Origin: a virus
Taxonomy: Duplodnaviria > Heunggongvirae > Uroviricota > Caudoviricetes
Length of the DNA stretch: 18,525 bases
IMG/VR virus record: IMGVR_UViG_3300015615_001160
Span: 1 to 18,525 of that record
Reading direction: 5' to 3' (one strand)
Positions 916 to 18,525 of the stretch are shown one piece after another (position 1 is the stretch's first letter; each line of letters begins with the position of its first letter). Below the pieces are notes generated by a model, which ran no database searches, was not told where the DNA came from, and saw only the letters and a list, made by a program, of their open reading frames with translations. Made by a program: the position numbers and the translations under genes.

Positions 916-1048
916 CGGCCTTGCGAGGACACGGACGCTCTGGAGTTCGCTCGGGTCAGCAGCGAACCTTCAGGAGGGGGTGGTGGAACCGGAGAGAGAC
1001 CAAGGGCGGATGAGGAAACGATTGCGTGTCGGACAAAGCAAATTTGGC

Positions 1049-1064
1049 GGGTAAGTTCTTACCC
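1049..1064. promoter_or_regulatory. Operator-like palindrome GGGTAAG-TT-CTTACCC in divergent intergenic region
   Basis: Perfect 7-bp arms with a 2-nt spacer, between the divergent starts at 915 (-) and 1194 (+). Function inferred only. Confidence 0.3.
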
Positions 1065-1193
1065 CGCGGGAGGTTGTTTCTGCAAGGGGTTGTCGAGGAT
1101 TTGAGGGGTGCTGATGCGACTCGCGGGAGATCGCCTTTTTGCGATATCGCGGGTTGCATGGTGCGATGATATTTGGGAACTCTGCGGCGCCCC

Positions 1194-1703
1194 ATGAAAA
1201 TCCCCCTTTGGCTCACCTCCTGTTTTCTCGCCTTCGTCGCCATGGCCGCGCCGCCGGCACCGTGGTCGCAAGTGATCGTCAGCGAGCCGTTTCACATGGG
1301 TGACGATACGGTGAAGGAAATGCGGAGCCCGAAGCCGCACGGGGAGAAATTCAGCGGTAGCTTCGCCCTTCCGCCGACGATGAAGCCGGGAAATAATACT
1401 TCAGTGCTGGTGAACCTGATGATTGCCGGCATCAGCCCGAAAAGCGAGGTGCAACGATCCCGAGCGCAACGCGAAGGCAAGGCGCTGGCGCGATTGCACA
1501 TCAATGGGCAGGAAGTGGCGGTCCTGAATACGCTGATCCAGGGGACGCATTCGAACTCTGCCGATCAGCCGATCATCGTGCGAGTGGCGGGGAAATTCCT
1601 GCGGGAAGGGCGCAACGAAATCGAGGTTCTGCCTGGCAGCGGCAAGGGGAAGGCTGGGCTGGATGACTGCGAATTGCTGCACTTGTCGGTCGCGAGCGAG
1701 TAG
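1194..1703 (+). CDS. Secreted hypothetical protein (169 aa), probable beta-sandwich domain
   Basis: ATG at 1194 (in frame with track ORF 1173-1703) gives a Sec-type signal peptide MKIPLWLTSCFLAFVAMA|AP. The mature part has an alternating beta-strand pattern (ARLHINGQEVAVL, FLREGRNEIEV) and motifs FHMGDD and LDDCEL. Stop TAG at 1701-1703. Confidence 0.8.
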   Translation: MKIPLWLTSCFLAFVAMAAPPAPWSQVIVSEPFHMGDDTVKEMRSPKPHGEKFSGSFALPPTMKPGNNTSVLVNLMIAGISPKSEVQRSRAQREGKALARLHINGQEVAVLNTLIQGTHSNSADQPIIVRVAGKFLREGRNEIEVLPGSGKGKAGLDDCELLHLSVASE

Positions 1704-1785
1704 GAGGATGCGGACGCCGTCGGTCGTTCAGAGCGGTTGAAATAGAGTTGTTGCCGCTGCGGTCCTGCCTGCTCAGTCGAACGAC

Positions 1786-1911
1786 GGTGGAACGGGCGCT
1801 CCGAGCCCGTTTGTGCCAGCCATCTTTGTCGGAGGCGAACTGAACTTTGGGGAAGAGTGGCGGCTGCGCCGCCGGTGTTTGGCGAAACGGGCTCGGAGCG
1901 CCCGTTCCACC
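1786..1911. repeat. REPIN-like inverted doublet of GTGG-type REP sequences
   Basis: Perfect 27-bp inverted repeat GGTGGAACGGGCGCTCCGAGCCCGTTT at 1786-1812 and 1885-1911, with a 72-bp spacer. Each arm is GTGG followed by its own hairpin AACGGGC-GCTCCGA-GCCCGTT, the GTRG + palindrome layout of REPs. Extragenic, between convergent genes. Confidence 0.8.
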
Positions 1912-1953
1912 ATCGGTTACCAGAATCTCGGCTATCACTTCATCTGAGCCGCT

Positions 1954-2005
1954 GTGGAAGCCTTCGGCGAGACGCCGGAGGCAACGGGTGGGACGCCCGG
2001 GCTCC
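1954..2005. repeat. Second REP-like element: tandem double hairpin
   Basis: GTGG-AA, hairpin GCCTTCGGCG-AGA-CGCCGGAGGC (1960-1982, one G:T), AA, hairpin CGGGTG-GGA-CGCCCG (1985-1999, one G:T), then GGCTCC (GGAG head on the minus strand). Lies about 40 bp downstream of the clpB stop. Confidence 0.55.
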
Positions 2006-2042
2006 GCGGGTGAGACGGCGTGCTATTGGAGGCGGTGGCGAA

Positions 2043-4619
2043 TCACGCTCCGAAGGCCAGCTTTCCGTCGCGCTCGTCGACGTGGATAAGCATGCCCTCG
2101 CGGAATTTGCCGTCGAGGATGTCGAGGGCGAGCGGGTCGAGAAGTTCGCGCTGCAGCACGCGCTTGAGCGGGCGGGCGCCGTAGACCGGGTCGTAGCCTT
2201 CGCGGGCGAGGTGGAGCTTCGCCTGGTCGCTGAGCGTGAGCGTGAGCTTTTGGTCGGCGAGGCGCTTGGTGAGGCGCGCGAGCTGGATGTCCACGATCTG
2301 CTTGAGATCGGTGTCGCTCAGGCGGTCGAAGATGATGATCTCGTCGACGCGATTGAGAAACTCGGGGCGGAAATGGCCGCGGAGTGTCTCGAGCACGCGG
2401 GCTTCGCGCTGCTCGGGGTTGTCGACATCGAGGATCGCGGCGCTGCCGAGATTGCTCGTCATGATGATGACGGTGTTCTTGAAATCGACCGTGCGGCCCT
2501 GGCCGTCGGTGATGCGGCCGTCGTCCAGAACTTGCAGGAGCACGTTGAAGACGTCGTGGTGCGCTTTCTCGATCTCGTCGAAGAGGACCAAGCTATACGG
2601 TTTGCGGCGGATACTTTCGGTGAGCTGGCCGCCTTCCTCGAAGCCGACGTAGCCGGGAGGCGCGCCGATGAGACGCGCGACGCTGTGCTTCTCCATGTAT
2701 TCGCTCATATCGATGCGGACCATGGCGCTGTCGTCGTCGAAGAGGAACTCGGCGAGCGCTTTCGAAAGCTCGGTTTTGCCGACGCCGGTCGGGCCGAGGA
2801 AAATGAAGGAGCCGATGGGGCGGTTCGGATCCTGCAACCCGCTGCGAGCGCGGCGCACGGCATTCGCGACGGCGGTGATCGCTTTCTTTTGACCGATGAC
2901 GCGCGCGCTGAGGCGCTGCTCCATCTTCACGAGTTTTTCGCGTTCGCCTTCGCGCAGATTGCTCACGGGGATGTGTGTCCACGCGCTCACGACCTCGGCG
3001 ATATCTTCCTCGGTGACTTCTTCCTTCAGCATCGAACGCCCTTCGCGCGCCATGTCGGCGAGCTTCGCGTTCTGCACTTCGATTTGTTTTTGCGCGGCGG
3101 GAATGTGGCCGTATTGGATCTCGCTCGCGGTCGTGAGATCGCCGTTACGCTGCGCGCGTTCGAGGTCAGTCTTGAGCTGGTCGAGTTGCTCGGAAAGCTT
3201 GCGCTGCTGGTCGATGAGCGACTTCTCGCTCTGCCACTGCGCCTTCATCGCGGCGCTCGATTCGCGCTTCGCGGCGAGCTCTTTTTCGATGCGCGCGAGG
3301 CGTTCTTTCGAGGCGGCATCCTTTTCTTTTTTCAAGGCCTGGCGCTCCATTTCGAGCTGCATGATTTCACGCTCGACCACGTCGATTTCCGTGGGCATCG
3401 ACTCGATTTCCATCTTCAGGCGCGACGCGGCTTCGTCCACGAGATCGACGGCTTTATCGGGTAGAAAACGGTCGCTGATGTAGCGGTGGGAAAGCGTGGC
3501 GGCGGCAACGAGCGCGGCGTCCTGAATGCGCACGCCGTGGTGCACTTCGTAGCGTTCCTTGAGGCCGCGGAGAATGGCGATGGTGTCCTCGACGGTCGGC
3601 TCATCGACCATCACGGGCTGGAAGCGCCGCTCGAGCGCGGGATCTTTTTCGATATGCTTGCGATACTCGTCGAGCGTGGTCGCGCCGATGGTGCGCAGTT
3701 CGCCGCGCGCGAGCTGCGGCTTGAGCAGATTGCCTGCATCGACGGCGCCTTCGGCCTTGCCGGCGCCCACGATGGTGTGGAGTTCGTCGATGAAAAGAAT
3801 GATCTCGCCCTGGCTGTCGGTGACTTCTTTCAAGAACGCCTTGAGCCGGTCCTCGAACTCGCCGCGGAACTTCGCACCGGCAATCATCGCACCGAGGTCC
3901 ATCGCGATGACGCGCTTGTTTTTCAGCGAATCCGGCACGTCGCCCGCGATGATGCGGCGCGCGAGACCCTCGACGATGGCGGTCTTGCCGACGCCGGGCT
4001 CGCCGATGAGCACGGGGTTGTTTTTCGTGCGGCGGGAGAGCACCTGCATGGCGCGGCGAATCTCCGCATCGCGACCGATGACGGGATCGATTTTTCCTTT
4101 GCGCGCGAGCTCGGTGAGATCGCGCCCATATTTTTCGAGCGTCTGGTATTTGTCCTCGGGATTCTGGTCAGTCACGCGCTGCGAACCTCGCACTTGCTGG
4201 AGCGCTTGCATGACCTTTGCGTGCGTGAGGCCCACTTCCTTGAGCAGCTTGCCGGCGGAGACACCGCTGTCGCTGAGCGCGAGCAGGTAGTGTTCGGCGG
4301 AGAGGTATTCGTCCTTGAGCTTGCCCATCTCCTTTTCGGCCTGGCGGAGAATGGCGAGCAGCTCGGCGGACGGGTTGGCTGGCGAAGTTCCGCCGTGGAC
4401 CTGTGCGCGCGTGGCGAGGGCGGCAGTGAGCTTGCCGCGCAAAAGGCCGACATTGACTCCGACCTTTTCGAGCAGCGGCACGGCGAGACCTTCCGGCTGG
4501 TCGAGCAGCGCGGAGAGCACATGCTCATTATCTAGCTCGGAATGGTGGCGGTCCGCGGCGGCAGATTGGGCACTTTGGAGTGCTTCCTGCATTCGTTGGG
4601 TGAGTCGGTCGAGGCGCAT
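2043..4619 (-). CDS. clpB: ATP-dependent chaperone/disaggregase ClpB (858 aa)
   Basis: The start [14 protein letters not shown] at 4619 fits the ClpB N-domain; the track ORF's extra 61 N-terminal aa do not. NBD1 has Walker A GEPGVGKT, Walker B LFIDE and pore loop [10 protein letters not shown] long coiled-coil M-domain follows. NBD2 has Walker [13 protein letters not shown] and LFDEIEK. C-terminal [12 protein letters not shown]; no IGF ClpP-docking loop. Confidence 0.97.
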
Positions 4620-4653
4620 AGGGCGAGGAAATACAGCAAGTTGCTTTCCCCGT

Positions 4654-4680
4654 CTTATACAGAGAGAAAGCCAGTGGCAA
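4654..4680 (-). promoter_or_regulatory. Candidate sigma70-type promoter for clpB
   Basis: Minus strand TTGCCA (4675-4680) then TATAAG (4654-4659, 15-nt spacer) or TAAGAC (4652-4657, 17-nt spacer), about 35 nt upstream of the ATG. Spacing and the -10 match are imperfect. Confidence 0.4.
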
Positions 4681-4691
4681 TAGCGCAATAG

Positions 4692-4728
4692 TGACGCACA
4701 TGACACACATGTGTCTCTGTGAGTCATG
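4692..4728. promoter_or_regulatory. Operator-like cluster of three TGACNCACA boxes upstream of the clpB promoter
   Basis: TGACGCACA (4692-4700) and TGACACACA (4701-4709) in tandem, plus inverted TGACTCACA (4718-4726). Boxes 2 and 3 form the inverted repeat CATGACACACA-N8-TGTGAGTCATG (10/11). Confidence 0.5.
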
Positions 4729-4895
4729 CTGGCGCACCGGAGCCGTGATGGGGTTGGAGCCTGCCGAGGGCATTCGGGGCGGTCGGACCACGCGAAGATC
4801 AACGGAGTTTTCTGGCAACTTCCAAGAGGGTGAAAATACCTATCTGAAAATAATTTGATCGTGGAGTTTTCCGAGGTGGTTTTTGGTGTGAGTTT

Positions 4896-4921
4896 CGCGC
4901 CTCGTGCGAGGTGCGTTTTTT
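4896..4921 (+). terminator. Intrinsic terminator-like hairpin with U6 tail
   Basis: Stem CGCGCCTC / GAGGTGCG (8 bp, one G:U), loop GTGC, immediately followed by TTTTTT (4916-4921). No U-tract in the minus orientation. Confidence 0.5.
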
Positions 4922-5188
4922 CGGTGGCTCGGTGGGATGACGTTTCGGCCGGTCCGTCGCGCCATCGGTGCGGAGCGGGGGCGTCGCCCTGCGAGGCTCA
5001 TTCCGCCATGGTTTGCGGGCGATGCGATTTTCCCGATCGGGGCGCGAATCGCGCGCGGTGAGCGGCGACCTTTTGCGTTGCGAAAAGCGCGCGATTTTGC
5101 GCGGTGGTTTTGAGTGGAAATTTCGAGGTCCGCCAAGCGCATCCGTGGTGGCCGCAAAACGCTGGGCCTGGATAAAAATTCCGCAACG

Positions 5189-5204
5189 GATTTACGAGTA
5201 AATC
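5189..5204. promoter_or_regulatory. Operator-like palindrome GATTTAC-GA-GTAAATC
   Basis: Perfect AT-rich 7-bp arms in an AT-rich patch (5171-5215) of otherwise GC-rich DNA, about 340 bp upstream of the giant gene. Confidence 0.4.
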
Positions 5205-5410
5205 AAATTAGTTTCCGGGCCCGATTTTGGGGCCGGGCGGGAAGGGTCAGGCTTTGCCCGAAGCTCCTCGTGCGCGCGAGGGCGCTCGCGAACCCGCATG
5301 GATACACGCTTTCCGGGTGGTTCCTCTCTGGAAAACCGCGGCGCGGCGTGGCCGGCGGCGTGGCGAATTTTTGCCCTGCTTCGCTCAGAGGCCTTGCGTC
5401 ACGGTTTCCC

Positions 5411-5429
5411 TGCAAAGAATTCCTTTGCA
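5411..5429. promoter_or_regulatory. Operator-like palindrome TGCAAAG-AATTC-CTTTGCA
   Basis: Perfect 7-bp arms with a 5-nt spacer, about 110 bp upstream of the ATG at 5541. Confidence 0.4.
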
Positions 5430-5540
5430 CCCGGGGCTTTATGGCGTTTTCTGTCGGAAGTCCCGGTTGGGATCGGTGTGCCCTCGCGCCGACCTCCAAT
5501 CCCCCCACTGAACGTCCCCGTCCACAGTCCCTACATCCTT

Positions 5541-8500
5541 ATGCGCAAGCTAACACGTCCCTCCCGCAAGAACGCACGTCGCCACGCACGTCGCTTCTCG
5601 CGCCGCCTCCAGTCCAAGCGGTTGATGCCGTCGCTGATCCTCACCGGCGCCATCAGCTTGTTCCTCCCGAAAATCGCCAACGCGGCGGTGCTGATTTGGG
5701 ACCAGGACACGGTCGGCATCAACAACATCGGGGCGTTCACCGGCGCTACGGGCGGCGGTGCCGGCATCGGCGGCGCGGGCACGTGGAATACGACCGGCGC
5801 GCAGTGGTGGTCGGGTCCGAGCCTCACGAACAGCCTCGCGAACACGACGTGGAACAACGCCGGCAACGACACGGCAATTTTCGGCGGACCGACGGCTGGC
5901 ACGGTGACCCTTGGGACGGGGATCACTGTGGGCGGCCTGCAGTTCAACACGACGGGCTACACCATTTCGGCAGCCACGAACGCTCTGACGCTGGGACCGT
6001 CGGCGACGTTCACGCTGAACAACGTGGCGGCGGCGACCATCACCGGGGCGGTGGGTGGGACGGGGAGTAATCTCACCGTGAGTGGCGGGGTGCTCGGTGG
6101 TGCGGTGACGGGAGGGACTCTCACGTTCAACGGCACGGCCACGGGTGGATGGACCGGCACGACGACGATCAACAACGGCATGACCGTGAACCTCTCGGAG
6201 AGCAGTCGTGTGCTGGCGAATACGTCGAGCCTCACGCTCAACGGCGGTGCGCTCACGCTGACGAATGCGAACCCGACGGAAGCGGCGTTCGATCGCGTGA
6301 ACAACGGCGCGGGCATCACGTCCAACGGCGGCGCGATCAACTTCACCAACACGGCCGCCTCGACGATCAGCTACGCGGAAACGCTCGGCTCGGTGGCGCT
6401 GACTTCGGGGCGCCTGTCCATCACGAACACGAACAACAACACGTCGCCCTCGACGCAGATCCTGACCCTCGGTGGGTTGACGCGCACGGGCGGTGCGAAC
6501 ACGTCGGTCGTGAACTTTGCCGGCACCGGCCTCGGTGCGACGGCGCAGAGCCGGATCATCATCACCGGCCAGGCGGCGGCGGACATCGGGCCGTGGGCCA
6601 CGTATAACGGCACCGACTTCGCGACCTACAACGCCACCAACGGCGTGCAGGCGGTGACGACGACGACGCTGGCTTCCACGTCCAACAGCGCGACAACGAA
6701 CTACATCGCGCCAGCCACCCTGTCGGTCTCCACGGGCACCAACCCGTCATACAAGACGCTGCAGATGAATACGGCGGCGCGGACGCTGAACATCACGGGC
6801 AATACCGTGAGCGTCGGCGGCATCGTGGCCAGCGGCGGCAGCCATCTGGTCAACATCGGCGCGACGGGCACGGTCCGCGCGCTCACCTCGGGTGCGCCGC
6901 TCTATATCTTCGTCAATGCCAACCAGCTCTCGCTGAACGCGATCGTGGCGGACAACGCGGCGCCGGGCGGCCTCGTCTTCAGCGGCGGCACTTCCGGTGC
7001 CGGCACGCTGGTGCTCGGCAACGCGACCAACTCGTTCGGCGGCGGCGTGACGATCAACTCCGGTGTGCTGAGCATCGCGGCGGATAACCGCCTCGGCAAC
7101 GTGAACAACGACATCGCGTTCAATGGCACGGGCACGCTGGCGATCACGGCGGCGAGCACGCTGCCAGCCTCGCGCGAGGTTTTCGTCAATAACGGCGCCA
7201 TTGGTATCATTAACGTCACGACGGGGACCAGCACCATCAACGGCGTGGTCAGCGGCACAGGTGGTATCCAAAGCCTGGCGAATGTGCTCGTCCTTGGCGG
7301 CGTGAACACCTACACCGGGCCGACCATTCTCACGGCGGGTACGTTGCAGGCGGGTTCGGCTCAGGCCTTCGGCGTCAACTCGGCGGTCAGTATCACCGCC
7401 GGTACGTTGAGCCTGAACAGCCTTAGCAACTCGATCGGCTCGCTGCAAGGCGCGGGTGCGGTGGGTCTCGGCAACGCTACGCTGACGGTGGGTGGCAATA
7501 ATGAATCCACCTCGTATAGCGGCGTCATCGGCACGGCCTCCACGGCCGGCAGTCTGACCAAGATCGGCAATGGCATCCTGACCTTCACGTCCGGCACCGG
7601 CCATATCTATACGGGTGCGACCAATATCAATGGTGGCTTCCTCGGCATCTCGAACACCACTCACCTTGGCCCGGTCGCCACGCCGCTGAATATCGGTGGC
7701 AGCGGTGGCGGTTTGCAGTTTGCGCCGAACACCACCGTGAACGCGCTCGATATTACCGCGGGTCGCACGATCAACATCAATGCGACGCTGACGATCGACA
7801 CGAATAATACGGTGCAGTCCTTTGCCAATCCGATTGGCGGGGGCGGCGCGGGTGGCATCATCAAGGCGGGCAACGGCGTGCTCTATCTCAGTGGCACCAA
7901 TGACTTCTCCGGGGCGACTTCGGTGACCAACGGCACGCTCGTCCTGCGCAACAGCGCGGCGCTCGGCACGTCCCCGAGCGCGACGGTCACGGCCAATGGC
8001 GCGTTGACCTTGCAGAGTGGTATCGCGCTGCCGGCGACGACCTCGCTGACCCTCAGCGGGAATGGTGCGGCCGCCTTCCAGAGCGGTGCGCTCGTCAATG
8101 CCTCCGGCAACAACACGGTTTCCGGCGCCCTCACGCTCAATGCACCGGCCACGATTTCCGTGGATAACGGCACGCTCGTCCTGGACAGCACCACGCCGGT
8201 CGCGGCGACCGACCATACGCTCACGCTCGCGGGTTCCGGCAGCGGCACCCTCGGCGCCGCTCTCGCCACCGGCGCGGGCGGACTCACCAAGACCGGCCCC
8301 GGCACGTGGACCCTCAATGCAGGTAGCACGAGCACGAACACGGGCGCGGTGACGATCAATGGCGGCACGCTCGTCGTGAATCTCGCGAACAGCCCGACCG
8401 GCGTCCTCAACTCCGTCTCGGATCTCGCGATCAATGGCAGCGCGCTCACCATCATCGGCGCGTCGGGCGTCGGCAGCAGCCAGTCGCTCGGCAACCTGAG

Positions 8501-11500
8501 CCTCGGGCCGGGCGTCGATGCGGTGATCAATATCGACCCGATCGACAGCACGACCACGAACCTGACCCTTGGCACCACCTGGACGCGCGCGGCCGGTTCG
8601 ACCCTGCATATTAATTACCTTCCCGGCACGGGCGTGGCCTCGATGACCACCAGCGGACCCGTCAGCGGTTCCGGCGGGCCGACCGGCTCGAATGGCGTGC
8701 TCGGTTATGCGACCCTGACCGACGCGGCCGGCGTGACCCGCATGGCGCGGATCGATGGCGGCAACAACCTTGCCCACTTCGACTCGTCCTCCGCGACCGA
8801 CCTCGCGGACAACAGCGACGATGCGGCGATCGACTACACTTCGCTCAACAGCGGCGCTCTGCTCAACTGGTCGAATGGTATCTCCAATCGTTCGGTCAAT
8901 TCGCTGATCGTCGATACGGCGAACGGTGCGCAAACGATCAATATGGGCGCGGCCGGCAATAAGCTGACCATCACCAGCGGCGCGATCCAATTCCTCGGTG
9001 CGGACAATGGCACGCTCACGGGCGGCCAGGTGGGCGCGGACGATTCGGAAGTGATCGTGCACCAGAACGGCGCGGGCACGTTCACCATCGGCAGCCTCCT
9101 CAGCAGCGGCACGGGCAGCCTCATCAAGACCGGCGCGGGCACGCTCGTGCTCTCCGGCGCGAATTCCTACTCGGGCGCGACGACGGTCAACGGCGGCATC
9201 CTGCGCGCCGGCTCGAGCACGGCGTTCGGTGTGAACTCCGCCGCGACGGTCGCGGCGGGCGGCACGCTCGACATCGGTGGCTTCAACGTGGCGGTCCGCT
9301 CGCTCAACGCCGCCGGCGACGTCGCGCTGACCAATGGCGGCACCCTGAGCGTGGGTGGCGCGTATTCGATCGGCAATACCCAGGGCGTCCTCGGGCGCAG
9401 CACGATCAGCGGCCTCATTTCCGGCACGGGCAACCTCTCCGTGAACGGCGGCACTACGCTGACGCTGACGAACAACAGCAACAGCTTCTCCGGCCAGACG
9501 AACGTCAATCACGGCACGCTGGTAATTAGTAACATGGGCCAGCTCGGCACGGGCTCGGCACCGCTCGTCGTGGGCGGCCAGGCCAGCCTGGGCGGCCTGC
9601 CGAACGGCCAGTTGATCGTGCAGGGCGGCGCGTCCGGCATCACCACCGATCGCGACCTGACCATCCAGGGCCGCGGCCCGAATACAATCGGCAATGCGTT
9701 GGTTAGCATCGGCAACAACACCTTCAATGGTATTGTGACCACGGGCACGTTCACGGAGACCCGCATCACCTCCGCGGCCGGCACTCTTACGTTCGGCAGC
9801 GATAGCGTCGTGAACATCGGCCAGAACACTGGCATGAACGACAGCTTCCTGGCGGTCAACGCCGGGAACATCGTCATCGACGGCTTCATCACCGGCGGCT
9901 TCTTCGGCACGGCCACGGCCGCCCCGAACCGCAGCTTCCGCAAGGCGGGTGGCGTGATCGCCAGCTCGCTCATCCTGACGAACAACAACAACAATTTCGT
10001 TGGCGACTTCTACCTCGACGGCGGCAATCTGCGCCTTTCGCACGGCGGCCAGCTCGGCCAGAGCGTGGGTGCGAGCACCAGCGTGCTGCGCGGCACGGGC
10101 GGCACCTACGAAATCCGCACCGACGCTCCGACGAGCTTCGCGAACCGCAACGTGTCCACCCAGGACGGCAACCAGAACTTCTTCGTGGATCGCGCCGCGA
10201 CGGGGGCCGGCGGCTTCGGCGTGGTGCAGGCGGACGGCTCGGGCGTGCTGGGCTACGCCAGCGCCGCTGGCAACGTGACCTTCGGCAACCTGGTCTTCGG
10301 CACGACGGGGGGTAACCTGACACGTTCGCTCACCTTCACCGGCCGCAACGGCTACGGCATCTCCTTCTCCGGTTCCACCGGCACATTCCCGCAGCTCCTG
10401 ACGCTCACCAACAACCTTTCCGGCGGTCTCCTGACGCTGAATACCTCGATCACCTTCGGTGAAGGCACCACGCGCACGCTGACGATTGGCGGTGCCGCCG
10501 ACACCCTGCTTACCGGTTATATCCTGAGTGCCGGCAGCGGGTCGCATTCCTTCACCAAGACGGGTGCGGGCACGCTGGTGATGACCGGCGAAAACACCTC
10601 CACGGCCAGCGCCAGCACGTATACGGCGAGCACGAACGTCAACGACGGCACGCTCCGCCTCACCGGCAGCATCAACAGCATCCTGAGCGGTCTCAACGGT
10701 GCGCTTCAGCTCAACAACGGCGCGTTCGATTACCGCGGCGCGGGCGAAAGCACGGCCAAGGTGCTCAACCAGTCGGGCACCACGGGCAATGCGATCGTTC
10801 TCGCGAACGGCACCGGTGCGCTCGAATTCACCAGTGCGGTGGCGGCGGGGCAGACGGGTGCGAAAACCTTGTTCCTCGGCGGCGCAAGCACGGACGCCAA
10901 CACCATCGGCGGCGTGATTATCGGTGACGGCGCGGTGGCCAAGGTCGGAGCGGGCACCTGGCTCTATGAGCCGGCTGCCGCGACTTATAGCACGGTTCAG
11001 AATCCCACCATGGCCAGTGGTGGTGGTGCGAACGGGCGCACTTTTGTGGTGTCGAGTGCCGCCGGCATCGTGATCGGTTCCCGCGTTACCGGCGCGGGTG
11101 CGCCTACGGGCTCCGTCGTGACCGGCATCAGCGGCAACACGATCACCATCAGCAATGCCATTGGGACGACAATGACCACCGGCGGCACGCTCACGTTTGC
11201 GGCCAATGCCAATTTCACCGGCAACGTCACCGTGGCCGGCGGCACCCTGCGCATCAGCCCGACGGCGACGAGCGGCAATGGTTCGGATGTCATCAACAAC
11301 ACCAGCCAGCTCATCTTCAATACCGATACCCTCACGGCCAATGGTTCCGCCGGCGGCACGTTCGAGTATCGCGGCCTGACCGGCGCGCCGACAGAGGTGC
11401 TCGGCAACCTCACGCCGACCGCGGGTCATGGCGTGGTGAAGATCGACGCGAATGGCGCGGCGTCGCCGACGCTCAACTTTGCTTCCCTCGTCGCGCGCGG

Positions 11501-14500
11501 CGCGGGGGCGACGGTCAACTTCCAGCCGGCTTCGGTCGGCGGCATCCAGTTCGCCACGGTGCCGACCACCGCCTCGAACGGGATGCTCAGCGGCTACGCC
11601 TACATCACCGACCCGACCACGGGGGCGATCGATTACGTGGCGACCCCGGCGATCAACACGAACATCGCCGCCCTCGGCGCGGCGACGGCGCTGCCGACGA
11701 CAGGTGCAACCGGCACGATCAATTACGTCAACACTGGCGCGCTGACGACCACCACGGCGCAGGCGGTCAACTCGCTGCGCATCGTCGGCAATGGCCAGAC
11801 CATCACCCTCGGTGGCGGACTCACGGTTACTTCGACCAGCGCCAACGTGCTGGGCGGCATCCTGCACGACAACGCGACCGGCGGCGCGACGATTGCCGGC
11901 GCGAACATCGCTCCCTCGACGAACAACCAGGAAATCGTCATCATCACCGGCGGCGCTTCTCTCACCCCGGACATCGATGCGCTAACCATCAGTTCCCTCA
12001 TCGGCGGCACGGGGACGGCCGTGCTCTCCCCGCTGACCAAGGCGGGCAAGGGCACCCTCATCCTCGCTGGCACGAGCACCCGCACCGGTCTGTTCACGAT
12101 CAACGAAGGCGTCGTGCAACTGAGCGGCAGCGGCCAGCTCAGCGGTGCGAATGCCCCGCTGACCATTCGCCAGAACGGCACGCTCGACATCAACGGCATC
12201 CCGACCGGCACCTCGATCGGCACGCTCAACGGCGCGGGCACGATCACGAACAGTGGTGGCTCCGCCCAGATCACCGTCGGCAACGGCACGACCGCCGGCA
12301 CGACCGGCGTCTTCTCGGGCATCATGCAAAACGGCGCGGGCCAGTTGAACCTCCGCCTGACGAATGCCTCGACCACCGGCACCACGCTGCTGGCTCTCAC
12401 GGGCCTGAACACCTTCACCGGCGCGACCACCATCGAAAACACGGCGGCCGGCACCGTGGTCCTCGATGCCAACCTCCTCGGCAACATCGGCCAGCCGAGC
12501 AGCATCGGTGCGGGCGATGCGACCGACGACGTGACCAACGCCGCGAGCCTCATCTTCAATGGCACCGGCACCGGCCTCGCCGTGTTGCGGTATACCGGCG
12601 CCTCGTCCCAGATCTACCAGACGACGCAATCGCCTACGGTTCTCACAAACCGCCTCTTCACGCTCAATGGCAACGGCGCGATCGATTCCTCGCCGGGCTA
12701 TGGTGCAGAACAGATCACGGCCCTCGCGAACAACAACGCCGCGCTCGTCTTCACCAACACGGGCGACATCGTGCTCGGACCCGGCACCAAGACCCTCACT
12801 TTGCAGGGCGTCTCGACGTCCGACAACGAGATCCGCATCCGCCTGACGGATGTGCCCGGCTCCACGCTCAACCTCACCAAGGCGGCGGCAGGCTTGTGGA
12901 ATCTGAACCCGGCCACGGCCAACGATTACGAAGGCTTCACCCTCATCAGCGGCGGTCAGTTGCAGGCGGTGGAAGATGTCAATGTGAACGGTGGCGTCGT
13001 GGGCATCTCGACGGGCAGCAACCTCCGCCTCGCGGGCGGTGTGTTCCAGTCGCTCGGCGCGCAGACTTTCGACCGTGGCATCGGCCTTGGGCCGGGCTTG
13101 GTGGCGTGGACCGGCGCGGCCGGCACGGAAGCGAGCCAAAGCGGCGGTTTCGCGGGCGGCACCGGCAAACTGACGGTGAACTTCGGCGGCACCGGCTCCA
13201 CGGTGAGCTTTGGCCAGCCCAGCGGCCTGGGCAGCGGCATCGGCAACGGCACCGGCACCCTGATCCTGAACTCCGGCACCGCGTTGTCGGAAGTCGAAAT
13301 CGTCAACGGCCTCAACCTGAACGGCGCGCTCCGCACTATCCAGGTCGATGACAACGCGACCGCGACGACGGATTTTGCCACGATCTCGGGCGTGATTACC
13401 GGCATCGGTGGTCTGAACCGCACGGGCGCCGGCACGCTGTATCTCACCGGCGCGAACGACTACTCCGGTCCGACCACCTTGGGGGGGGGCAATACGTTTG
13501 TGAGCTCAATCGGTGGTGGCTCGACCGCCACGAGTGCTTTCGGCGATGGCTCGGGTGCGCTGAACCTTGGCGCCAATGCCAACCTGTTTTATACGGGCTT
13601 GGGCGAAAACGTACAGCGACAGATCAACATTACTGGAACGCCCGTTCGCCTCGACAGCTCTGGTAGCGGCCCGCTGATCATCAACAGCCTCATCAATGCG
13701 GCGGCGGGGGCGAAGACACTGATCATTGGCGGTTCCTACAGCGGCGACAACGAACTCAAGGCCAACCTCGCGGACAGCGGCGGTGCGTTCACCCTCACCA
13801 AGGACGGCGGCAGCACCTGGATCATTTCCGGTGCAAACACCTACGCCGGCAACACGAACGTCAACTCCGGCTTCCTCGCCATCCCGACCACCAGCGTTGG
13901 GACGGGGATCAATCCGCTCGGCACCGGCACGCTCGTCTTCAGCAACGGTGGCATCATCGCGATGAATTCCGGCGGATTGACCGTGACCCAGCCGGTTCAG
14001 GTCCAAAACGACGCGTCGGCCGTTTTCAGCGGCGCGAATTCGATCGCGCTGACCAACAACTTCACGCTGCAGGGTAACTCGATCAATGTCAGTAACGCCA
14101 TCGCTTCGCCTGGCACGCTGACCATTTCCGGCCTCATTCAACAAGGCGCTGCGCAGACGACGGTCCGCGCGATTACCTTCCTCGGCACGGGCAATACGAT
14201 CCTCAGCGGGATCATCGGGGGATCCGCGGCGAATACCGCGAACCTGACGCCGACGTTCAATACCTCGGGCACGGTGACCATCACCGGAGGCTCGCCGAAC
14301 GTTTTCGCGTCCGGCTTCAACATCACCCAGGGCACTATCTTCGCCAACAAGGTGGGAGCGCTGGGCACCGGCACGGGCACGTTCACCTTTGCCGGCGGCA
14401 TCCTCAATGCCGGCGTGCCTTTCACCGGCACCAATTCGATCCTCAACCCGCTCATCGACCTCACGGCCACGGGCGCGGCGGCGTTTGCTGGGTCGAACTC

Positions 14501-17500
14501 GATCGAGCTCGCCGGCGTCGTGCGCAACAACAACGCCGACCGCACCCTATTCAACAACATTTCCAGCGGCACGCTGCATATCGGCCAGTTCCAGCTCTCG
14601 CAGGACACGAACCCGCGTTCCTTCACCTTGATGGGCAGCGGCAATACGACGCTCGGTGGCCAGATCGTCAACGGCAGCACGCTCACTACCGGCGCGAGCA
14701 ACTTCACCTATCGCGGCAACGGCAGCCTGACCTTCGGGGCGGGTGCGACCACCGCGGCGACCTTTGCCACGACCAGTGGCAGCGCCTCGGTCACGACCGG
14801 TTCGACCACGGGCCTGACCGTCGGCATGACGGTGACCGGCACGGGCATCCCGGCGGGCGCGTTCGTTTCGCGCATCCTGAGTGCCAATAGCTTCCTCCTG
14901 TCCGCGAACACGACAGCGACGAACGCGACCAATAACCTGGGCTTCAACGGCGGTTCATTCTTCACCGGCGCTCTCAACGTGCAATCGGGTACGGTGAGCT
15001 CCATCGACGGCGGCTCGATCGGTGCGGTCGGCACCTTGTCCGTCAGCCCCACGGCGACGTTCAACTTCGACAACAGCACGGTGCCGACCAACCCGGCAGC
15101 GGTCAACTTCAACACGACCAGCGGCAACACGACGGTGACCACTGGTTCGACGGTCGGCCTGACACCCGGCATGACGGTGACCGGCGCGGGCATCCCGGCC
15201 CGTGCGGTGGTCACGCAGGTCCGCGACGGCACCAGCTTCGTGATCTCGGTGGCCCCGACGGCGACCACCGCGGCCACGCCGCTGAGCTTCGCCTTCAACC
15301 GCCTCGGTGGTCGCCCGGTGACGCTCGCCCACGCCGCGTTCAACGTGACGGGCAACACCCTGGCCCGCTCGGAAATCGGCGGCAACCTCACGATCAACAG
15401 CGGTCTCTCGACCATCGACATCGACCCGAACGGCGGCGCCGGGGTCAGCCTCGAGCTCGGCACGTTCGCGCTCGGCACGGGCGGCGCGGTGGACTTCACC
15501 GGCACGCTCGGCACGGCGGCGAACAAGATCACCTTCACCGCGGCTCCGGCGCTGTTGCCGGCCAATACGGGCATCATCGCCCGCGGCCTGGTGAATGGGA
15601 ACGACTTCGCGACCTACAACAACACCGGCCTCACCACGAACACGAACGGGGTGCAGGCGTTTGCCGCGTATAACAACACCACTCTGCCTTCGGCCACCAC
15701 CAGCGGCAATACGACCGTGACCGTGACCAGCACGGCGGGCCTGACCCCTGGCATGGCGGTGTATGGCCCCGGCATTCCGGCGGGCGCGACCGTTGCCACC
15801 ATCATCTCCTCGGGCCTCTTCACCCTCTCGGCGGCGCCGACGACCACGGCGGCGGCGGGCATCCTCACCTACGGCACGGGCACCCTCGCGGACATCAATC
15901 TCACGAGCGGCGGCGACACGCTGCACATCGACAGCGGCTACGGTGCGGACGACATCAATGGCAACCGCACCATCAACGCGCTGAAGCTCACCGACGCGAC
16001 CGATCGTGAACTCGGCATCACCGGCGGGCAGAACGGCCAGCTCACGCTGACCTCGGGCGGTCTCATCGTGCAGGGTGGCGATCACTCGATCACCGTCCCG
16101 CGCATCGGTCTCGGCGCCGAAGCGGGCCTCCATGTGGCGAGCGGTTCGTCGCTCGACATCGCCGGTTCGATCGTTTCCGCCCAGAGCGTGACTAAGACGC
16201 AGGGCGGCGCGCTGACCTTCTCGGCGCCGCAATACTTCTCCGGCACGCTCACGCTGAGCGGCGGCACCACCACACTCGATGGCGGCCACAATACCATCTT
16301 CAACTCGGAAGCGTCCTCGACCATCCTGACGGTGAACGCCGGCGCGGTGCTCGATCTCAACGGCACGAACGCGTTTGTCCGCACCCTCAGCGGTGGCGTG
16401 GCGCCCGGCACCGGCGGCACGATCCAGAACGGCGGCTCGGCCTCGACGCTGACCGTCCGCATGGCAGCCGACGGCATCTGGGCGGGCGGCATCAATGGCC
16501 CGATCTCCTTCGTTCGCACGGGCGGCAGCACGCTGACCATGATGAACGCGAACGCGTATGATGGCGCGACGGCCTTGTTCGGCGGCGTGACCACGCTGCG
16601 CGACAACGCCACGCTGCTCAATACCCCGAGCCTCGCGATCAACTACGGCACGCTGACGATCGACAACAACGCGGGCAACGCGATCGACATCGCCAACCGC
16701 ATCAACGACGCGGCGCCGATCTCGATGCGCGGCGGCATCATCACCTTCCAGAGCCGCGTCAACAACTTCTCGACGGAGACGCTCGGGGCGCTCAGCCTCC
16801 TCGAGGGCGCCAACCGCGTGACTTCGACCAACAGCGTCACGGGCGCCTACGGCACCGCCGACCTGACCTTCGCGAGCTTCTCGCGCGCGGGCACCGGCAC
16901 GACGATCAACTTCACCGGCAGCAACCTCGGCGGCATTGGCAGCGTGGCGCGCATCATGTTCACCGACCCGGCTGGGCTCAACGTGAACGCGGGTTATGTG
17001 CTGCCGGTCTGGGCGGTCGCCAACAACTCCGATTACGCGGGCTACAACGCCACGACCGGCGTGGGCGCGCTCAACTCCTCCGGCTTCGTCGGCTACGATG
17101 CCGGCTACATGGCGGGCGGCAGCCCGCAAGGCTTCGGCCCCGGCAAGATCACGAACGTCTTCCAAGGCGCCCAAAACGGCACGCTGACGCTCTCCGCCGT
17201 CACCACCGAGACGGGGCGTCTGCGCCTCGCCGGCGCGTTCCAGAGCAGCATCGCCTTCACCGATGAAGACAACACGCTCGTCCTCCAGGACGGCGGTCTG
17301 CTCCGCAGCGATACCAACGCGGCGTCGGTCATCGGCACGACGGACATTCGCGGCAAGCTGACCACCGGCACGAGCAATCCGGAACTGATCGTTTACAACA
17401 ACAACGTCGGCACGACGAACTTCGCCGGTGGCGCGACCACCCAGGGTTCGGCGACGATCACGATGACCAGCACCACGGGCCTGGTCCCCGGCATGATCAT

Positions 17501-18525
17501 CACCCAGGCGGCGAACATCGCGCCCGGTACCTACATCCAGGAAGTGGTCAACGGCACCACGGTGATCCTGAGCCAGGCGGCCATCGCCACGAACAGCGGC
17601 CTTACCTTCGTCGGCGGGTCGAGCAATGTGATCATCAATTCGCAGATCACCGACAACGGCAATAACGTCGCGCTCGTGAAGTCGGGCGCCGGCAACCTGA
17701 ACCTGACTGCCAACAACGACTACTCGGGCGGCACAGTGGTTTCCCAAGGCACCTTGAACCTCATGGGTTCGGGCGTGGTCATCCCGGCGGGCGGCCTCGT
17801 CATCAACGGCGGCGTGCAGGGCACGGGTGCCGCGGTGACGCTGTTTAAGAACGCTGGCCAGATCGACGACAGTAACGACGTGACCATCAATGGCCGCGGT
17901 CTCCTCACCTTCGTCGGCAACAACACGCTGAGCAGCCTGACCTTCAACAACCTCGGCGGCGACGGCGCCCCGGTGGTGACGCAGCAGACCAACACCACCG
18001 GCAAGCTCACGCTGACGAGCGCGAACGCGATCACGGTGACGTCCAGCAACGCGGGCATCGTCCCGGTCATCAGCACGTCTTCGCTGGCCCTCCCGGCTGG
18101 CTCGGTCGACTTCAGCATCGGCGCGATCAAGGTTGGAGGCACGATCCTCACCGATCTGGTTCCGTCGCTGAATATCGCCGCGAGCATCAGCGGCGCGGGG
18201 ACGAGCATCACGAAGTCGAGTGACGGCCTGCTCCAGGTCGCCCCGTCGGCGGTCTTCCTCAACGGCGCGACCACGGTCGGCAGCACGACCCTTGCCCTCC
18301 CGTCCACCGACGGACTCCTCGTCGGCCAGAGCGTCACCGGCGCGAACATCCCCGCCGGCACGGTCATTCAGTCGATCGTGGACGGCACGACCGTCGTGCT
18401 CAGCCAGGCGGCGACGGGCACGGCCACCGGCACCACCGTCACCGCCACGGGTAGCACGTTCACGGGCGGCATGAGCGTCAGCGGCGGCGGCCTCGTCCTC
18501 GGTGGCAGCACGAACGTCTCCACCC
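5541..18525 (+). CDS. Giant secreted beta-helical adhesin-like protein with autotransporter-associated beta-strand (PATR-type) repeats; 3' partial, at least 4328 aa
   Basis: ATG at 5541. Reading this frame by hand gave no stop to the window end, and the track shows no stop-terminated + ORF in this frame while the antisense shadows keep one register. Signal peptide MRKLTRPSRK...LFLPKIANA|AV. G/T/N/A/S-rich, with about 20 repeats of type LTKxGxGTLxLxGxNxYxGxTxVNxGTL (e.g. LIKTGAGTLVLSGANSYSGATTVNGGIL near 9120, LVKSGAGNLNLTANNDYSGGTVVSQGTL near 17675), matching PF12951/TIGR02601. The C-terminal anchor (beta-barrel or PEP-CTERM) lies outside the window. Confidence 0.93.
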   Translation, partial: MRKLTRPSRKNARRHARRFSRRLQSKRLMPSLILTGAISLFLPKIANAAVLIWDQDTVGINNIGAFTGATGGGAGIGGAGTWNTTGAQWWSGPSLTNSLANTTWNNAGNDTAIFGGPTAGTVTLGTGITVGGLQFNTTGYTISAATNALTLGPSATFTLNNVAAATITGAVGGTGSNLTVSGGVLGGAVTGGTLTFNGTATGGWTGTTTINNGMTVNLSESSRVLANTSSLTLNGGALTLTNANPTEAAFDRVNNGAGITSNGGAINFTNTAASTISYAETLGSVALTSGRLSITNTNNNTSPSTQILTLGGLTRTGGANTSVVNFAGTGLGATAQSRIIITGQAAADIGPWATYNGTDFATYNATNGVQAVTTTTLASTSNSATTNYIAPATLSVSTGTNPSYKTLQMNTAARTLNITGNTVSVGGIVASGGSHLVNIGATGTVRALTSGAPLYIFVNANQLSLNAIVADNAAPGGLVFSGGTSGAGTLVLGNATNSFGGGVTINSGVLSIAADNRLGNVNNDIAFNGTGTLAITAASTLPASREVFVNNGAIGIINVTTGTSTINGVVSGTGGIQSLANVLVLGGVNTYTGPTILTAGTLQAGSAQAFGVNSAVSITAGTLSLNSLSNSIGSLQGAGAVGLGNATLTVGGNNESTSYSGVIGTASTAGSLTKIGNGILTFTSGTGHIYTGATNINGGFLGISNTTHLGPVATPLNIGGSGGGLQFAPNTTVNALDITAGRTININATLTIDTNNTVQSFANPIGGGGAGGIIKAGNGVLYLSGTNDFSGATSVTNGTLVLRNSAALGTSPSATVTANGALTLQSGIALPATTSLTLSGNGAAAFQSGALVNASGNNTVSGALTLNAPATISVDNGTLVLDSTTPVAATDHTLTLAGSGSGTLGAALATGAGGLTKTGPGTWTLNAGSTSTNTGAVTINGGTLVVNLANSPTGVLNSVSDLAINGSALTIIGASGVGSSQSLGNLSLGPGVDAVINIDPIDSTTTNLTLGTTWTRAAGSTLHINYLPGTGVASMTTSGPVSGSGGPTGSNGVLGYATLTDAAGVTRMARIDGGNNLAHFDSSSATDLADNSDDAAIDYTSLNSGALLNWSNGISNRSVNSLIVDTANGAQTINMGAAGNKLTITSGAIQFLGADNGTLTGGQVGADDSEVIVHQNGAGTFTIGSLLSSGTGSLIKTGAGTLVLSGANSYSGATTVNGGILRAGSSTAFGVNSAATVAAGGTLDIGGFNVAVRSLNAAGDVALTNGGTLSVGGAYSIGNTQGVLGRSTISGLISGTGNLSVNGGTTLTLTNNSNSFSGQTNVNHGTLVISNMGQLGTGSAPLVVGGQASLGGLPNGQLIVQGGASGITTDRDLTIQGRGPNTIGNALVSIGNNTFNGIVTTGTFTETRITSAAGTLTFGSDSVVNIGQNTGMNDSFLAVNAGNIVIDGFITGGFFGTATAAPNRSFRKAGGVIASSLILTNNNNNFVGDFYLDGGNLRLSHGGQLGQSVGASTSVLRGTGGTYEIRTDAPTSFANRNVSTQDGNQNFFVDRAATGAGGFGVVQADGSGVLGYASAAGNVTFGNLVFGTTGGNLTRSLTFTGRNGYGISFSGSTGTFPQLLTLTNNLSGGLLTLNTSITFGEGTTRTLTIGGAADTLLTGYILSAGSGSHSFTKTGAGTLVMTGENTSTASASTYTASTNVNDGTLRLTGSINSILSGLNGALQLNNGAFDYRGAGESTAKVLNQSGTTGNAIVLANGTGALEFTSAVAAGQTGAKTLFLGGASTDANTIGGVIIGDGAVAKVGAGTWLYEPAAATYSTVQNPTMASGGGANGRTFVVSSAAGIVIGSRVTGAGAPTGSVVTGISGNTITISNAIGTTMTTGGTLTFAANANFTGNVTVAGGTLRISPTATSGNGSDVINNTSQLIFNTDTLTANGSAGGTFEYRGLTGAPTEVLGNLTPTAGHGVVKIDANGAASPTLNFASLVARGAGATVNFQPASVGGIQFATVPTTASNGMLSGYAYITDPTTGAIDYVATPAINTNIAALGAATALPTTGATGTINYVNTGALTTTTAQAVNSLRIVGNGQTITLGGGLTVTSTSANVLGGILHDNATGGATIAGANIAPSTNNQEIVIITGGASLTPDIDALTISSLIGGTGTAVLSPLTKAGKGTLILAGTSTRTGLFTINEGVVQLSGSGQLSGANAPLTIRQNGTLDINGIPTGTSIGTLNGAGTITNSGGSAQITVGNGTTAGTTGVFSGIMQNGAGQLNLRLTNASTTGTTLLALTGLNTFTGATTIENTAAGTVVLDANLLGNIGQPSSIGAGDATDDVTNAASLIFNGTGTGLAVLRYTGASSQIYQTTQSPTVLTNRLFTLNGNGAIDSSPGYGAEQITALANNNAALVFTNTGDIVLGPGTKTLTLQGVSTSDNEIRIRLTDVPGSTLNLTKAAAGLWNLNPATANDYEGFTLISGGQLQAVEDVNVNGGVVGISTGSNLRLAGGVFQSLGAQTFDRGIGLGPGLVAWTGAAGTEASQSGGFAGGTGKLTVNFGGTGSTVSFGQPSGLGSGIGNGTGTLILNSGTALSEVEIVNGLNLNGALRTIQVDDNATATTDFATISGVITGIGGLNRTGAGTLYLTGANDYSGPTTLGGGNTFVSSIGGGSTATSAFGDGSGALNLGANANLFYTGLGENVQRQINITGTPVRLDSSGSGPLIINSLINAAAGAKTLIIGGSYSGDNELKANLADSGGAFTLTKDGGSTWIISGANTYAGNTNVNSGFLAIPTTSVGTGINPLGTGTLVFSNGGIIAMNSGGLTVTQPVQVQNDASAVFSGANSIALTNNFTLQGNSINVSNAIASPGTLTISGLIQQGAAQTTVRAITFLGTGNTILSGIIGGSAANTANLTPTFNTSGTVTITGGSPNVFASGFNITQGTIFANKVGALGTGTGTFTFAGGILNAGVPFTGTNSILNPLIDLTATGAAAFAGSNSIELAGVVRNNNADRTLFNNISSGTLHIGQFQLSQDTNPRSFTLMGSGNTTLGGQIVNGSTLTTGASNFTYRGNGSLTFGAGATTAATFATTSGSASVTTGSTTGLTVGMTVTGTGIPAGAFVSRILSANSFLLSANTTATNATNNLGFNGGSFFTGALNVQSGTVSSIDGGSIGAVGTLSVSPTATFNFDNSTVPTNPAAVNFNTTSGNTTVTTGSTVGLTPGMTVTGAGIPARAVVTQVRDGTSFVISVAPTATTAATPLSFAFNRLGGRPVTLAHAAFNVTGNTLARSEIGGNLTINSGLSTIDIDPNGGAGVSLELGTFALGTGGAVDFTGTLGTAANKITFTAAPALLPANTGIIARGLVNGNDFATYNNTGLTTNTNGVQAFAAYNNTTLPSATTSGNTTVTVTSTAGLTPGMAVYGPGIPAGATVATIISSGLFTLSAAPTTTAAAGILTYGTGTLADINLTSGGDTLHIDSGYGADDINGNRTINALKLTDATDRELGITGGQNGQLTLTSGGLIVQGGDHSITVPRIGLGAEAGLHVASGSSLDIAGSIVSAQSVTKTQGGALTFSAPQYFSGTLTLSGGTTTLDGGHNTIFNSEASSTILTVNAGAVLDLNGTNAFVRTLSGGVAPGTGGTIQNGGSASTLTVRMAADGIWAGGINGPISFVRTGGSTLTMMNANAYDGATALFGGVTTLRDNATLLNTPSLAINYGTLTIDNNAGNAIDIANRINDAAPISMRGGIITFQSRVNNFSTETLGALSLLEGANRVTSTNSVTGAYGTADLTFASFSRAGTGTTINFTGSNLGGIGSVARIMFTDPAGLNVNAGYVLPVWAVANNSDYAGYNATTGVGALNSSGFVGYDAGYMAGGSPQGFGPGKITNVFQGAQNGTLTLSAVTTETGRLRLAGAFQSSIAFTDEDNTLVLQDGGLLRSDTNAASVIGTTDIRGKLTTGTSNPELIVYNNNVGTTNFAGGATTQGSATITMTSTTGLVPGMIITQAANIAPGTYIQEVVNGTTVILSQAAIATNSGLTFVGGSSNVIINSQITDNGNNVALVKSGAGNLNLTANNDYSGGTVVSQGTLNLMGSGVVIPAGGLVINGGVQGTGAAVTLFKNAGQIDDSNDVTINGRGLLTFVGNNTLSSLTFNNLGGDGAPVVTQQTNTTGKLTLTSANAITVTSSNAGIVPVISTSSLALPAGSVDFSIGAIKVGGTILTDLVPSLNIAASISGAGTSITKSSDGLLQVAPSAVFLNGATTVGSTTLALPSTDGLLVGQSVTGANIPAGTVIQSIVDGTTVVLSQAATGTATGTTVTATGSTFTGGMSVSGGGLVLGGSTNVST
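5571..5594 (+). repeat. 12-nt tandem duplication in the signal-peptide n-region
   Basis: AACGCACGTCGC CACGCACGTCGC (11/12 identical), encoding NARR-HARR and followed by degenerate FSRR. Confidence 0.7.
10971..11204 (+). repeat. Inserted domain copy 1 (divergent), splitting a PATR repeat
   Basis: KVGAGTWLYE [..RTFVVSSAAGIVIGSRVTGAGAPTGSVVTGISGNTITISNA..LTF] ..NANFTGNVTVAGGTL. Confidence 0.7.
13481..13489 (+). repeat. G9 homopolymer inside the adhesin CDS (currently in frame)
   Basis: TTG GGG GGG GGC (Leu-Gly-Gly-Gly). This is the longest mononucleotide run I saw in the gene, which otherwise uses mostly GGC/GGT for Gly. Confidence 0.9.
14745..14945 (+). repeat. Inserted domain copy 2, splitting a PATR repeat
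   Basis: FTYRGNGSLTFGAG [..TTSGSASVTTGSTTGLTVGMTVTGTGIPAGAFVSRILSANSFLLS..LGF] NGGSFFTGALNVQSGTV. Confidence 0.8.
15096..15293 (+). repeat. Inserted domain copy 3, in the DN..NR loop
   Basis: FNFDNSTVPTNP [..TTSGNTTVTTGSTVGLTPGMTVTGAGIPARAVVTQVRDGTSFVIS..LSFA] FNRLGG. Confidence 0.8.
15678..15872 (+). repeat. Inserted domain copy 4, after the DFATY..GVQA motif
   Basis: NGVQAFAAYNN [..TTSGNTTVTVTSTAGLTPGMAVYGPGIPAGATVATIISSGLFTLS..LTY] GTGTL. Confidence 0.8.
17412..17612 (+). repeat. Inserted domain copy 5, in the ELIV..IINSQI loop
   Basis: ELIVYNNNVG [..TTQGSATITMTSTTGLVPGMIITQAANIAPGTYIQEVVNGTTVILS..LTFV] GGSSNVIINSQITDNG. Confidence 0.8.
18246..18449 (+). repeat. Inserted domain copy 6, splitting a PATR repeat
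   Basis: ITKSSDGLLQVAP [..TTVGSTTLALPSTDGLLVGQSVTGANIPAGTVIQSIVDGTTVVLS..] GSTFTGGMSVSGGGLVL. Confidence 0.8.

Follow-up and report, generated by a model that had tools for sequence, protein, structure and literature searches.

The stretch of DNA analysed here, which we call the window, comprises positions 1 to 18,525 of the IMG/VR virus record IMGVR_UViG_3300015615_001160, and contains the 5' part of a giant gene for a protein built of PATR ("autotransporter-associated beta strand") repeats, which in turn carries six copies of a small domain, or module, of about 65 residues. The full gene has 13,022 codons and ends at nt 44366 of the 122.5-kb source record, the window holding the first 4,409 residues of its product, referred to below as the host protein. 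Residues are counted from the first ATG at 5298; the initial annotation, which a model made from the letters of the window, used residue numbers that fit a start at ATG 5541 (an offset of 81), and this latter ATG, followed by a signal-peptide-like stretch, is likely the true start. Nearest to the source organism are Prosthecobacter fluviatilis and a Verrucomicrobiaceae metagenome-assembled genome (MAG), which have orthologous giant open reading frames (ORFs) of 14,338 and 14,376 aa, respectively. The gene and the module copies in the window are the following:

5298..18524, + strand: giant PATR gene, 5' part (4,409 codons); open frame with its first ATG at 5298
11013..11201, + strand: module copy 1 (aa 1906-1968), divergent; in a PATR turn; both orthologues carry a copy
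14763..14948, + strand: module copy 2 (aa 3156-3217), in a PATR turn; neither orthologue carries a copy
15108..15293, + strand: module copy 3 (aa 3271-3332), in a loop that precedes the NRLGG motif; not in the orthologues; positional twin at aa 9683-9744
15690..15875, + strand: module copy 4 (aa 3465-3526), in a loop that follows the NGVQA motif; not in the orthologues; positional twin at aa 9901-9962
17430..17612, + strand: module copy 5 (aa 4045-4105), in a loop that follows ELIVYNNN; shared by both orthologues and P0077; missing from the internal paralogue at aa 10465/10466
18264..18449, + strand: module copy 6 (aa 4323-4384), in a PATR turn; in paralogue B, P0153 and P0036; in neither orthologue and not in about 12 homologous segments

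All six copies were located where the initial annotation had placed them, with lengths of 62-66 residues, and its consensus agrees with our alignment of the six cores. In order to avoid circularity, the test hidden Markov model (HMM) was built exclusively from 125 module copies in proteins of other organisms, and this external model recovered the six window copies at 27-69 bits (E 1e-10 to 1e-23) and all 17 copies of the whole protein at 20-71 bits, while the 50 block-shuffled versions of the protein used as a control peaked at 2.7 bits. Besides the six copies in the window, 11 more lie downstream, five of them single and six in a tandem run (aa 8778-9216, record nt 31629-32945) with a period of about 73 residues, and a similar tandem run is found in the P. 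fluviatilis orthologue at aa 5151-5420. Given this run of six in the same protein, nested and beads-on-a-string forms of the module coexist in one gene; the contrast with tandem duplication that had been drawn from the window is partial, as tandem arrays are also usual in the family. In the 122.5-kb record outside the giant gene, no module was found, and the prophage further along is also without it.

The 32/33-nt match between copies 2 and 3 (14822-14854 vs. 15167-15199) was confirmed exactly as first described; since this shared stretch encodes the most conserved peptide of the module, GMTVTG(T/A)GIPA, the identity is weak evidence of recent exchange. As a separate observation, about 15% of the family has Cys at both module positions 5 and 16 (alignment A4), on the neighbouring strands 1 and 2, where the pair may form an optional disulfide in a subfamily; the window copies have no Cys at these positions.

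In the host protein, Pfam and NCBIfam recognise the PATR repeats and nothing else, by PF12951 (E 2.1e-39, 133.6 bits against a cut-off of 27, in 11 stretches) and by TIGR02601 (E 1.5e-36, in 15 stretches), and PATR is also the sole Pfam match of the C-terminal 1,000 aa (E 5e-52). The C-terminus has VPEP, then a hydrophobic stretch and then RRR, its final sequence being VVVPEPGSMATLAGAAGLLLGLQRFRRRNTKKA; the Pfam PEP-CTERM model (PF07589) matches this tail under its cut-off (E 0.042, 14.4 bits vs. 20.7), and the tails of the two orthologues, of the PEP-CTERM type, end in VVVPEPSRMLLLMFGLLGLFFRRRRR. By its sequence, the host protein belongs to the PATR beta-helix proteins of the cell surface, and its tail resembles the PEP-CTERM type. 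A classical type Va autotransporter was considered and rejected, given that there is no C-terminal beta-barrel translocator among the Pfam matches of the last 1,000 residues and that the tail is PEP-CTERM-like instead.

Fold and distribution of the module

The AlphaFold2 (AF2) model of copy 3 alone, made with a 131-row module alignment, is all-beta with seven strands, at a predicted local distance difference test (pLDDT) score of 90.1 and a predicted TM-score (pTM) of 0.73. A second AF2 model covers aa 3990-4450 of the stalk (461 residues, with copies 5 and 6 in their context, from a 21-row alignment; mean pLDDT 73.8), and in it the strand pattern of both copies is as in the isolated module, the module blocks having pLDDT values of 75-91. 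About 250 of the 461 residues, in the remainder of this stalk model, align to the beta-helices of pertactin, VacA and Vag8 (Z 14-16), as would be expected if the two barrels lie outside a continuous helix; the respective Z scores of the whole model are 15.8 for pertactin, 14.5 for VacA p55, 14.2 for Vag8 and 12.9 for UpaB, and the predicted fold of the rod is that of a right-handed beta-helix. The proposal of a self-contained small beta-domain, rather than ordinary rungs, is upheld by the isolated barrel and by the repetition of its strand pattern in the larger context, and the modelled module is an autonomous seven-stranded beta-barrel. Given the continuity of the helix on both sides, the N- and C-termini of the module would be close in space, and the modules would project outward from the rod.

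When the profile of 131 modules was compared with the sequences of the PDB, one chain was matched, 8ECI (8eci_1, E 8.6e-5, residues 13-71), with the GIPAGTTI core aligned; this is the capsid decoration protein gp7 of the Arthrobacter phage Bridgette, which according to its depositors binds as dimers around the capsid pentamers (bioRxiv 10.1101/2022.09.09.507160). The module model matched the same structure in Foldseek (probability 1.0, TMq 0.64, 39% identity) and in VIA (Z 9.4, root mean square deviation 2.5 Å over 68 of 70 residues, 37% identity), about 2 Z units above the next match. The next VIA ranks are nearly all phage structural proteins with accessory barrels, namely the phi92 gp150 tailspike (6e0v, Z 7.4), tail-tube and tail-tip proteins, lambda J, the K1 lyase and the P22 coat I-domain (Z 5.0); the E1 FCCH and the F1/V1 N-terminal barrels (F1 alpha, Z 5.4) come next, at Z about 5. 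Along with 6e0v, 7w1c (Z 6.2) and 8bke (by Foldseek) are matches at fold level to the beta-barrel insertion domains of tailspikes. Among the predicted proteins of BFVD, cyanophage virion or fibre, tail-collar and Arthrobacter phage proteins were matched with TM values of 0.85-0.91 and 30-40% identity, and all six copies match the same positions of four PHROGs, three of which are classed as virion structural protein. The tandem array of six modules gave nothing at E ≤ 1e-4 by tblastn, with the low-complexity filter on, against 50,697 GenBank phage records.

The six copies had also been likened to the FCCH domain of E1. PF16190 gave no match to them at E ≤ 10, and the fold matches to E1 FCCH (Z 5.3 for 4p22_B 218-300 and 4.6 for 2v31) are within the range that common small barrels reach. 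The suspected likeness to phage inserts stands at the level of fold, with matches to gp7, phi92 gp150 and the P22 I-domain, and that to E1 FCCH stands there more tentatively; a phage origin and a binding role are conjectural. In P0051, residues 696-741, right after the module array, match PF16190 under its threshold (E 4e-5, 24 bits vs. 29.5) in a place where the module HMM is blind, which hints that FCCH-like barrels and the module travel together or are distant kin.

No model in Pfam-A or NCBIfam covers the module, and the expectation that no known Pfam family describes it proved right. At E ≤ 1e-3, a profile search found 2,937 representative clusters, 398 of which also pass E ≤ 1e-10. Most of the clusters have tandem arrays of a period of 65-72 residues, and in their sources, which belong to Planctomycetota and Verrucomicrobia, the proteins are called "hypothetical" or "autotransporter-associated beta strand protein". 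The genomes of P. fluviatilis and of the MAG have at least 50 module copies each, distributed among several open frames that range from about 4,800 to 14,400 residues. The Pfam domains that co-occur with the module among 63 shorter family members include PATR, phage tail Collar, Big_13, Flagellin_N and flagellar hook domains; the flagellins P0045 and P0024 have seven to eight modules at the variable outer region (Flagellin_N at 3-137, modules at about 152-701), and the hook protein P0083, of the FlgE type, has four modules between D1 and the C-terminal rod segment, so that in these filament proteins, too, the module is nested. By these domain contexts, the module serves generally to decorate the exposed surfaces of filaments and particles.

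Placement of the copies in paralogues and orthologues

The initial annotation claimed that copies 1, 2 and 6 split a PATR repeat at the same turn, and that the repeat is restored upon their removal, and the splice scores speak for this. We made a PATR profile from ten uninserted PATR repeats of the host protein and scored the repeats before and after cutting the module out, with the result that the score rose from 7.4 to 15.8 bits for copy 1, from -0.7 to 6.1 for copy 2, and from -0.2 to 7.7 for copy 6. These gains amount to 6.8-8.4 bits, and the same procedure gave 2.3 and 4.3 bits for copies 3 and 4. For the loops of copies 3, 4 and 5, the three motifs quoted earlier as uninserted versions are all present in the translation.

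Orthologues and paralogues with uninserted loops are stronger evidence of nesting than the splice test. Within the host protein, a segment of about 1,200 residues (aa 3240-4460) has an internal paralogue at aa 9655-10800 with 35-45% identity, where copies 3, 4 and 6 have positional twins, and where copy 5 is opposed by one clean gap of about 73 residues (ELIVYNNN[...]VIINSQITDN vs. ELFVFANN-TVTIASAIVDN). Presence and absence of the module were read from the two genome-derived orthologues, the 150 HMM matches being biased toward presence. Both orthologues are collinear with the host protein over aa 124-4315, with 35-58% identity. All three orthologous proteins have copies 1 and 5; at the places of copies 2, 3, 4 and 6, both orthologues have an intact PATR repeat or loop instead, and the offset of the alignment shifts by 131 residues exactly at copies 2 and 3, and by about 70 at copy 4. 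The orthologues, in turn, have modules at sites that are empty here: one near aa 766, in a PATR turn; two in tandem in P. fluviatilis and one in the MAG near aa 1289, also in a PATR turn, a region which in the host protein is the best-scoring uninserted PATR; and one near aa 2866, in the loop before PLGTGTL. In more distant homologous segments, the placement differs again, with different loops occupied in at least ten proteins. The modules are consequently not carried at fixed positions, as four of the six window copies are missing from the two orthologues and three other loops are filled there, which agrees with what the initial annotation had supposed. Judged from these alignments, the repeat or loop of the host is continuous in relatives that have no such segment, and the borders of the indels are the borders of the domain, as befits a nested domain.

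When the modules of all three proteins were placed in one tree, copies 2, 3, 15, 16 and 12 formed a clade exclusive to the host protein (support 0.86). Within it, the sister of copy 2, from a PATR turn, is the pair 3/15, from a different loop (support 0.82), and this suggests copying between different site types within this lineage. The lineage-specific copies 2 and 3 have a mutual identity of 56-59%, compared with 42-52% to the modules of the orthologues. The idea of repeated insertion into loops stands, in that the copies are nested and vary by site; what does not stand is the count, since copies 3, 4 and 6 have paralogue twins and the orthologues also have copies 1 and 5, and therefore the six copies are not six independent events. 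Apart from this, copy 5 groups in the tree with copy 6 of the host protein (support 0.76) rather than with the modules that occupy its site in the two orthologous ORFs (aa 4043 and 3945), for which gene conversion between copies or a same-site replacement is possible.

Two observations concern the surroundings of the gene. Directly upstream, at window 2043-4802 on the minus strand, there is an intact gene for a ClpB/ClpA-type AAA+ chaperone (Clp_N, two AAA modules and ClpB_D2-small), and because of this ClpB-type gene, this end of the IMG/VR "provirus" record has the appearance of ordinary host chromosome and not of phage. Very long open frames also run antisense to the giant gene, e.g., at window 6747-11867 on the minus strand, with up to 1,706 codons, and these are most likely by-products of GC-rich, stop-poor repeat sequence and not genes.

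Turnover and possible role of the modules

Taking all of the above into account, we consider it probable that autonomous barrels of about 65 residues are nested in turns of the PATR beta-helix, with gain and loss site by site, and that they make lateral knobs on the stalk. Each nested copy would protrude sideways from the very long surface rod of a Verrucomicrobiaceae bacterium; copies would be added or removed in frame at single helix turns, partly copied from modules already in the gene, and would then be carried along by segmental duplication, with the closeness of the module ends allowing the seating in a turn. The knobs would probably serve as lateral contact surfaces in a multivalent adhesion of low affinity and, together with the face of the helix, they may make carbohydrate grooves, as is the case for the tailspikes, in which a beta-barrel insertion domain and the beta-helix face complete such a groove (PMC10653864). 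As to the role itself, we put adhesion or glycan contact at somewhat less than an even chance. Several points weigh against our reading and should be kept in mind. The flanks of copy 5 are poorly predicted in the stalk model (pLDDT 40-50); the sequence match to 8ECI has a large composition-bias term, and the agreement of the fold match is the sole reason to trust it; the module tree was built from about 62 columns and its support is moderate, a clade restricted to one lineage could also be mimicked by gene conversion, and gain and loss are separable only with an outgroup; and no ligand, partner or phenotype has been reported for any family member. Besides, the conserved module positions are exclusively Gly, Pro and hydrophobic, with no conserved polar or aromatic patch, and for this reason a fixed catalytic or ligand site is disfavoured. 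Thr+Ser account for 33% of the residues and charged residues for 3.5%, a composition in keeping with a scaffold whose surfaces vary, with multivalent contacts of low affinity, with a possible glycosylation, or with packing.

Other explanations of the same data differ in how much they deny. One would hold that the segments are degenerate beta-helix repeats or low-complexity look-alikes rich in Thr, Ser, Gly and Ala, given that the protein is compositionally biased throughout and that the bias term of the 8ECI match is high; we find this highly improbable, since block shuffles stay at or below 2.7 bits compared with the 20-71 bits of the real copies, the AF2 barrel reaches a pLDDT of 90, the fold match to 8ECI has a Z of 9.4, and the indels seen in paralogues and in orthologues begin and end cleanly where the module does. 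Another would have all the modules ancestral to the stalk and every difference a deletion, so that nothing was inserted and "mobile" would be a misnomer. Each difference between the host protein and the pair from the Prosthecobacter lineage is indeed one event readable both ways, copies 1 and 5 are shared, and copies 3, 4 and 6 predate the internal segmental duplication. However, a single turn holds zero, one or two modules across the three orthologues, the homologous segments of at least ten proteins have them in differing loops, and copies 2 and 3, specific to this lineage and from differing site types, are nevertheless mutual nearest relatives; moreover, an all-ancestral protein would need a module in almost every turn. 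We therefore regard loss alone as quite unlikely.

The third alternative accepts the domain and its nesting and assigns it a structural or protective role, such as bracing or spacing of the rod, rod-rod packing, carriage of O-linked glycans, or masking of the helix from proteases or phages. The Thr/Ser-rich, nearly uncharged composition without a conserved polar site favours it, and so do the part of the solved relative gp7 as a capsid decoration protein, in dimers around the pentamers (bioRxiv 10.1101/2022.09.09.507160), and the filling of the outer region of flagellins and FlgE by the module; on the other side, tailspike insertion barrels of similar fold touch carbohydrate (PMC10653864), and the phage fibre and tail-collar contexts suggest contact with a target. 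A structural or protective role instead of an adhesive one is a possible reading, although a doubtful one. At the opposite end, the module might be a general surface-decoration barrel traded between phage and bacteria, whose small size and presumably close termini would allow it to be dropped into nearly any exposed turn, be it of beta-helix rods, of the outer regions of flagellin and hook, of capsid decoration proteins or of fibres, with the knobs and the helix face making many independently evolving carbohydrate grooves and with the turn-by-turn presence of modules retuning adhesion; this far-reaching version of the nested-barrel explanation we hold to be unlikely as it stands.

Significance and comparison with known systems

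Few surface proteins of Verrucomicrobiota and Planctomycetota are larger or commoner than the giant PATR/PEP-CTERM rods, which are annotated just as "beta strand repeat", with no function assigned. Such rods carry, in many copies, a discrete, foldable domain that has no name in the databases and that is also on phage capsids and fibres and on flagellar filaments. This unit of 65 residues, expressible alone, is a concrete experimental handle, and curators gain a candidate new domain family that counts about 2,900 sequence clusters and includes one solved structure. No new mechanism is revealed, and the kind of arrangement is already known, given that nested barrels on beta-helices have been described and that one family member has been solved; it is nonetheless a clean natural case of domain nesting with loop-by-loop turnover. 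In the literature on PATR, giant genes and PEP-CTERM, we found no description of a nested module, and what appears undescribed is the family itself, uncurated in spite of its size, the multiple nesting at several turn types in one rod, and the documented presence and absence of the module between orthologues.

The E1 FCCH domain (PF16190), the barrels like domain II of EF-Tu, and the N-terminal six-stranded barrels of the F1-ATPase, a group that includes the P22 coat I-domain, share with the module the general layout of a small barrel and a similar "GL..G..V" turn; however, the module has no PF16190 match, and Z scores of about 5 correspond to common arrangements, so that any homology would be putative. 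Among the giant PATR/PEP-CTERM proteins of Verrucomicrobiota and Planctomycetota, the host protein is, by its sequence, a typical member, the annotation of that family naming the repeat only. Closest to the module is the N-terminal domain of Bridgette gp7 (8ECI), together with the similar predicted domains of cyanophage and tail-collar proteins, which have the same fold and the motif G-x-x-V/I-x-G-x-G-I-P-x-G-T-x-I ... L-S. The phage proteins carry this domain in a terminal position or in tandem, in small or fibrous virion proteins, whereas in the host protein, which is cellular and of 13,022 residues, it lies inside the turns of a beta-helix; a transfer may have gone in either direction. In its architecture, the host protein resembles the tailspikes KP34gp57 and LKA1gp49, the phi92 gp150 colanidase and the K1 lyase, where a small barrel likewise interrupts a turn of a right-handed beta-helix, from which it stands out, with no sequence similarity of the module to these insertion domains found here. 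They offer the best analogue of how the module may work. The insertion domains of the tailspikes are longer, at about 100 residues, are present as one per helix, and use charged residues to aid binding or catalysis, whereas the module of the host protein has about 65 residues, is nearly uncharged, and is nested in many copies and in several types of turn of the same helix.

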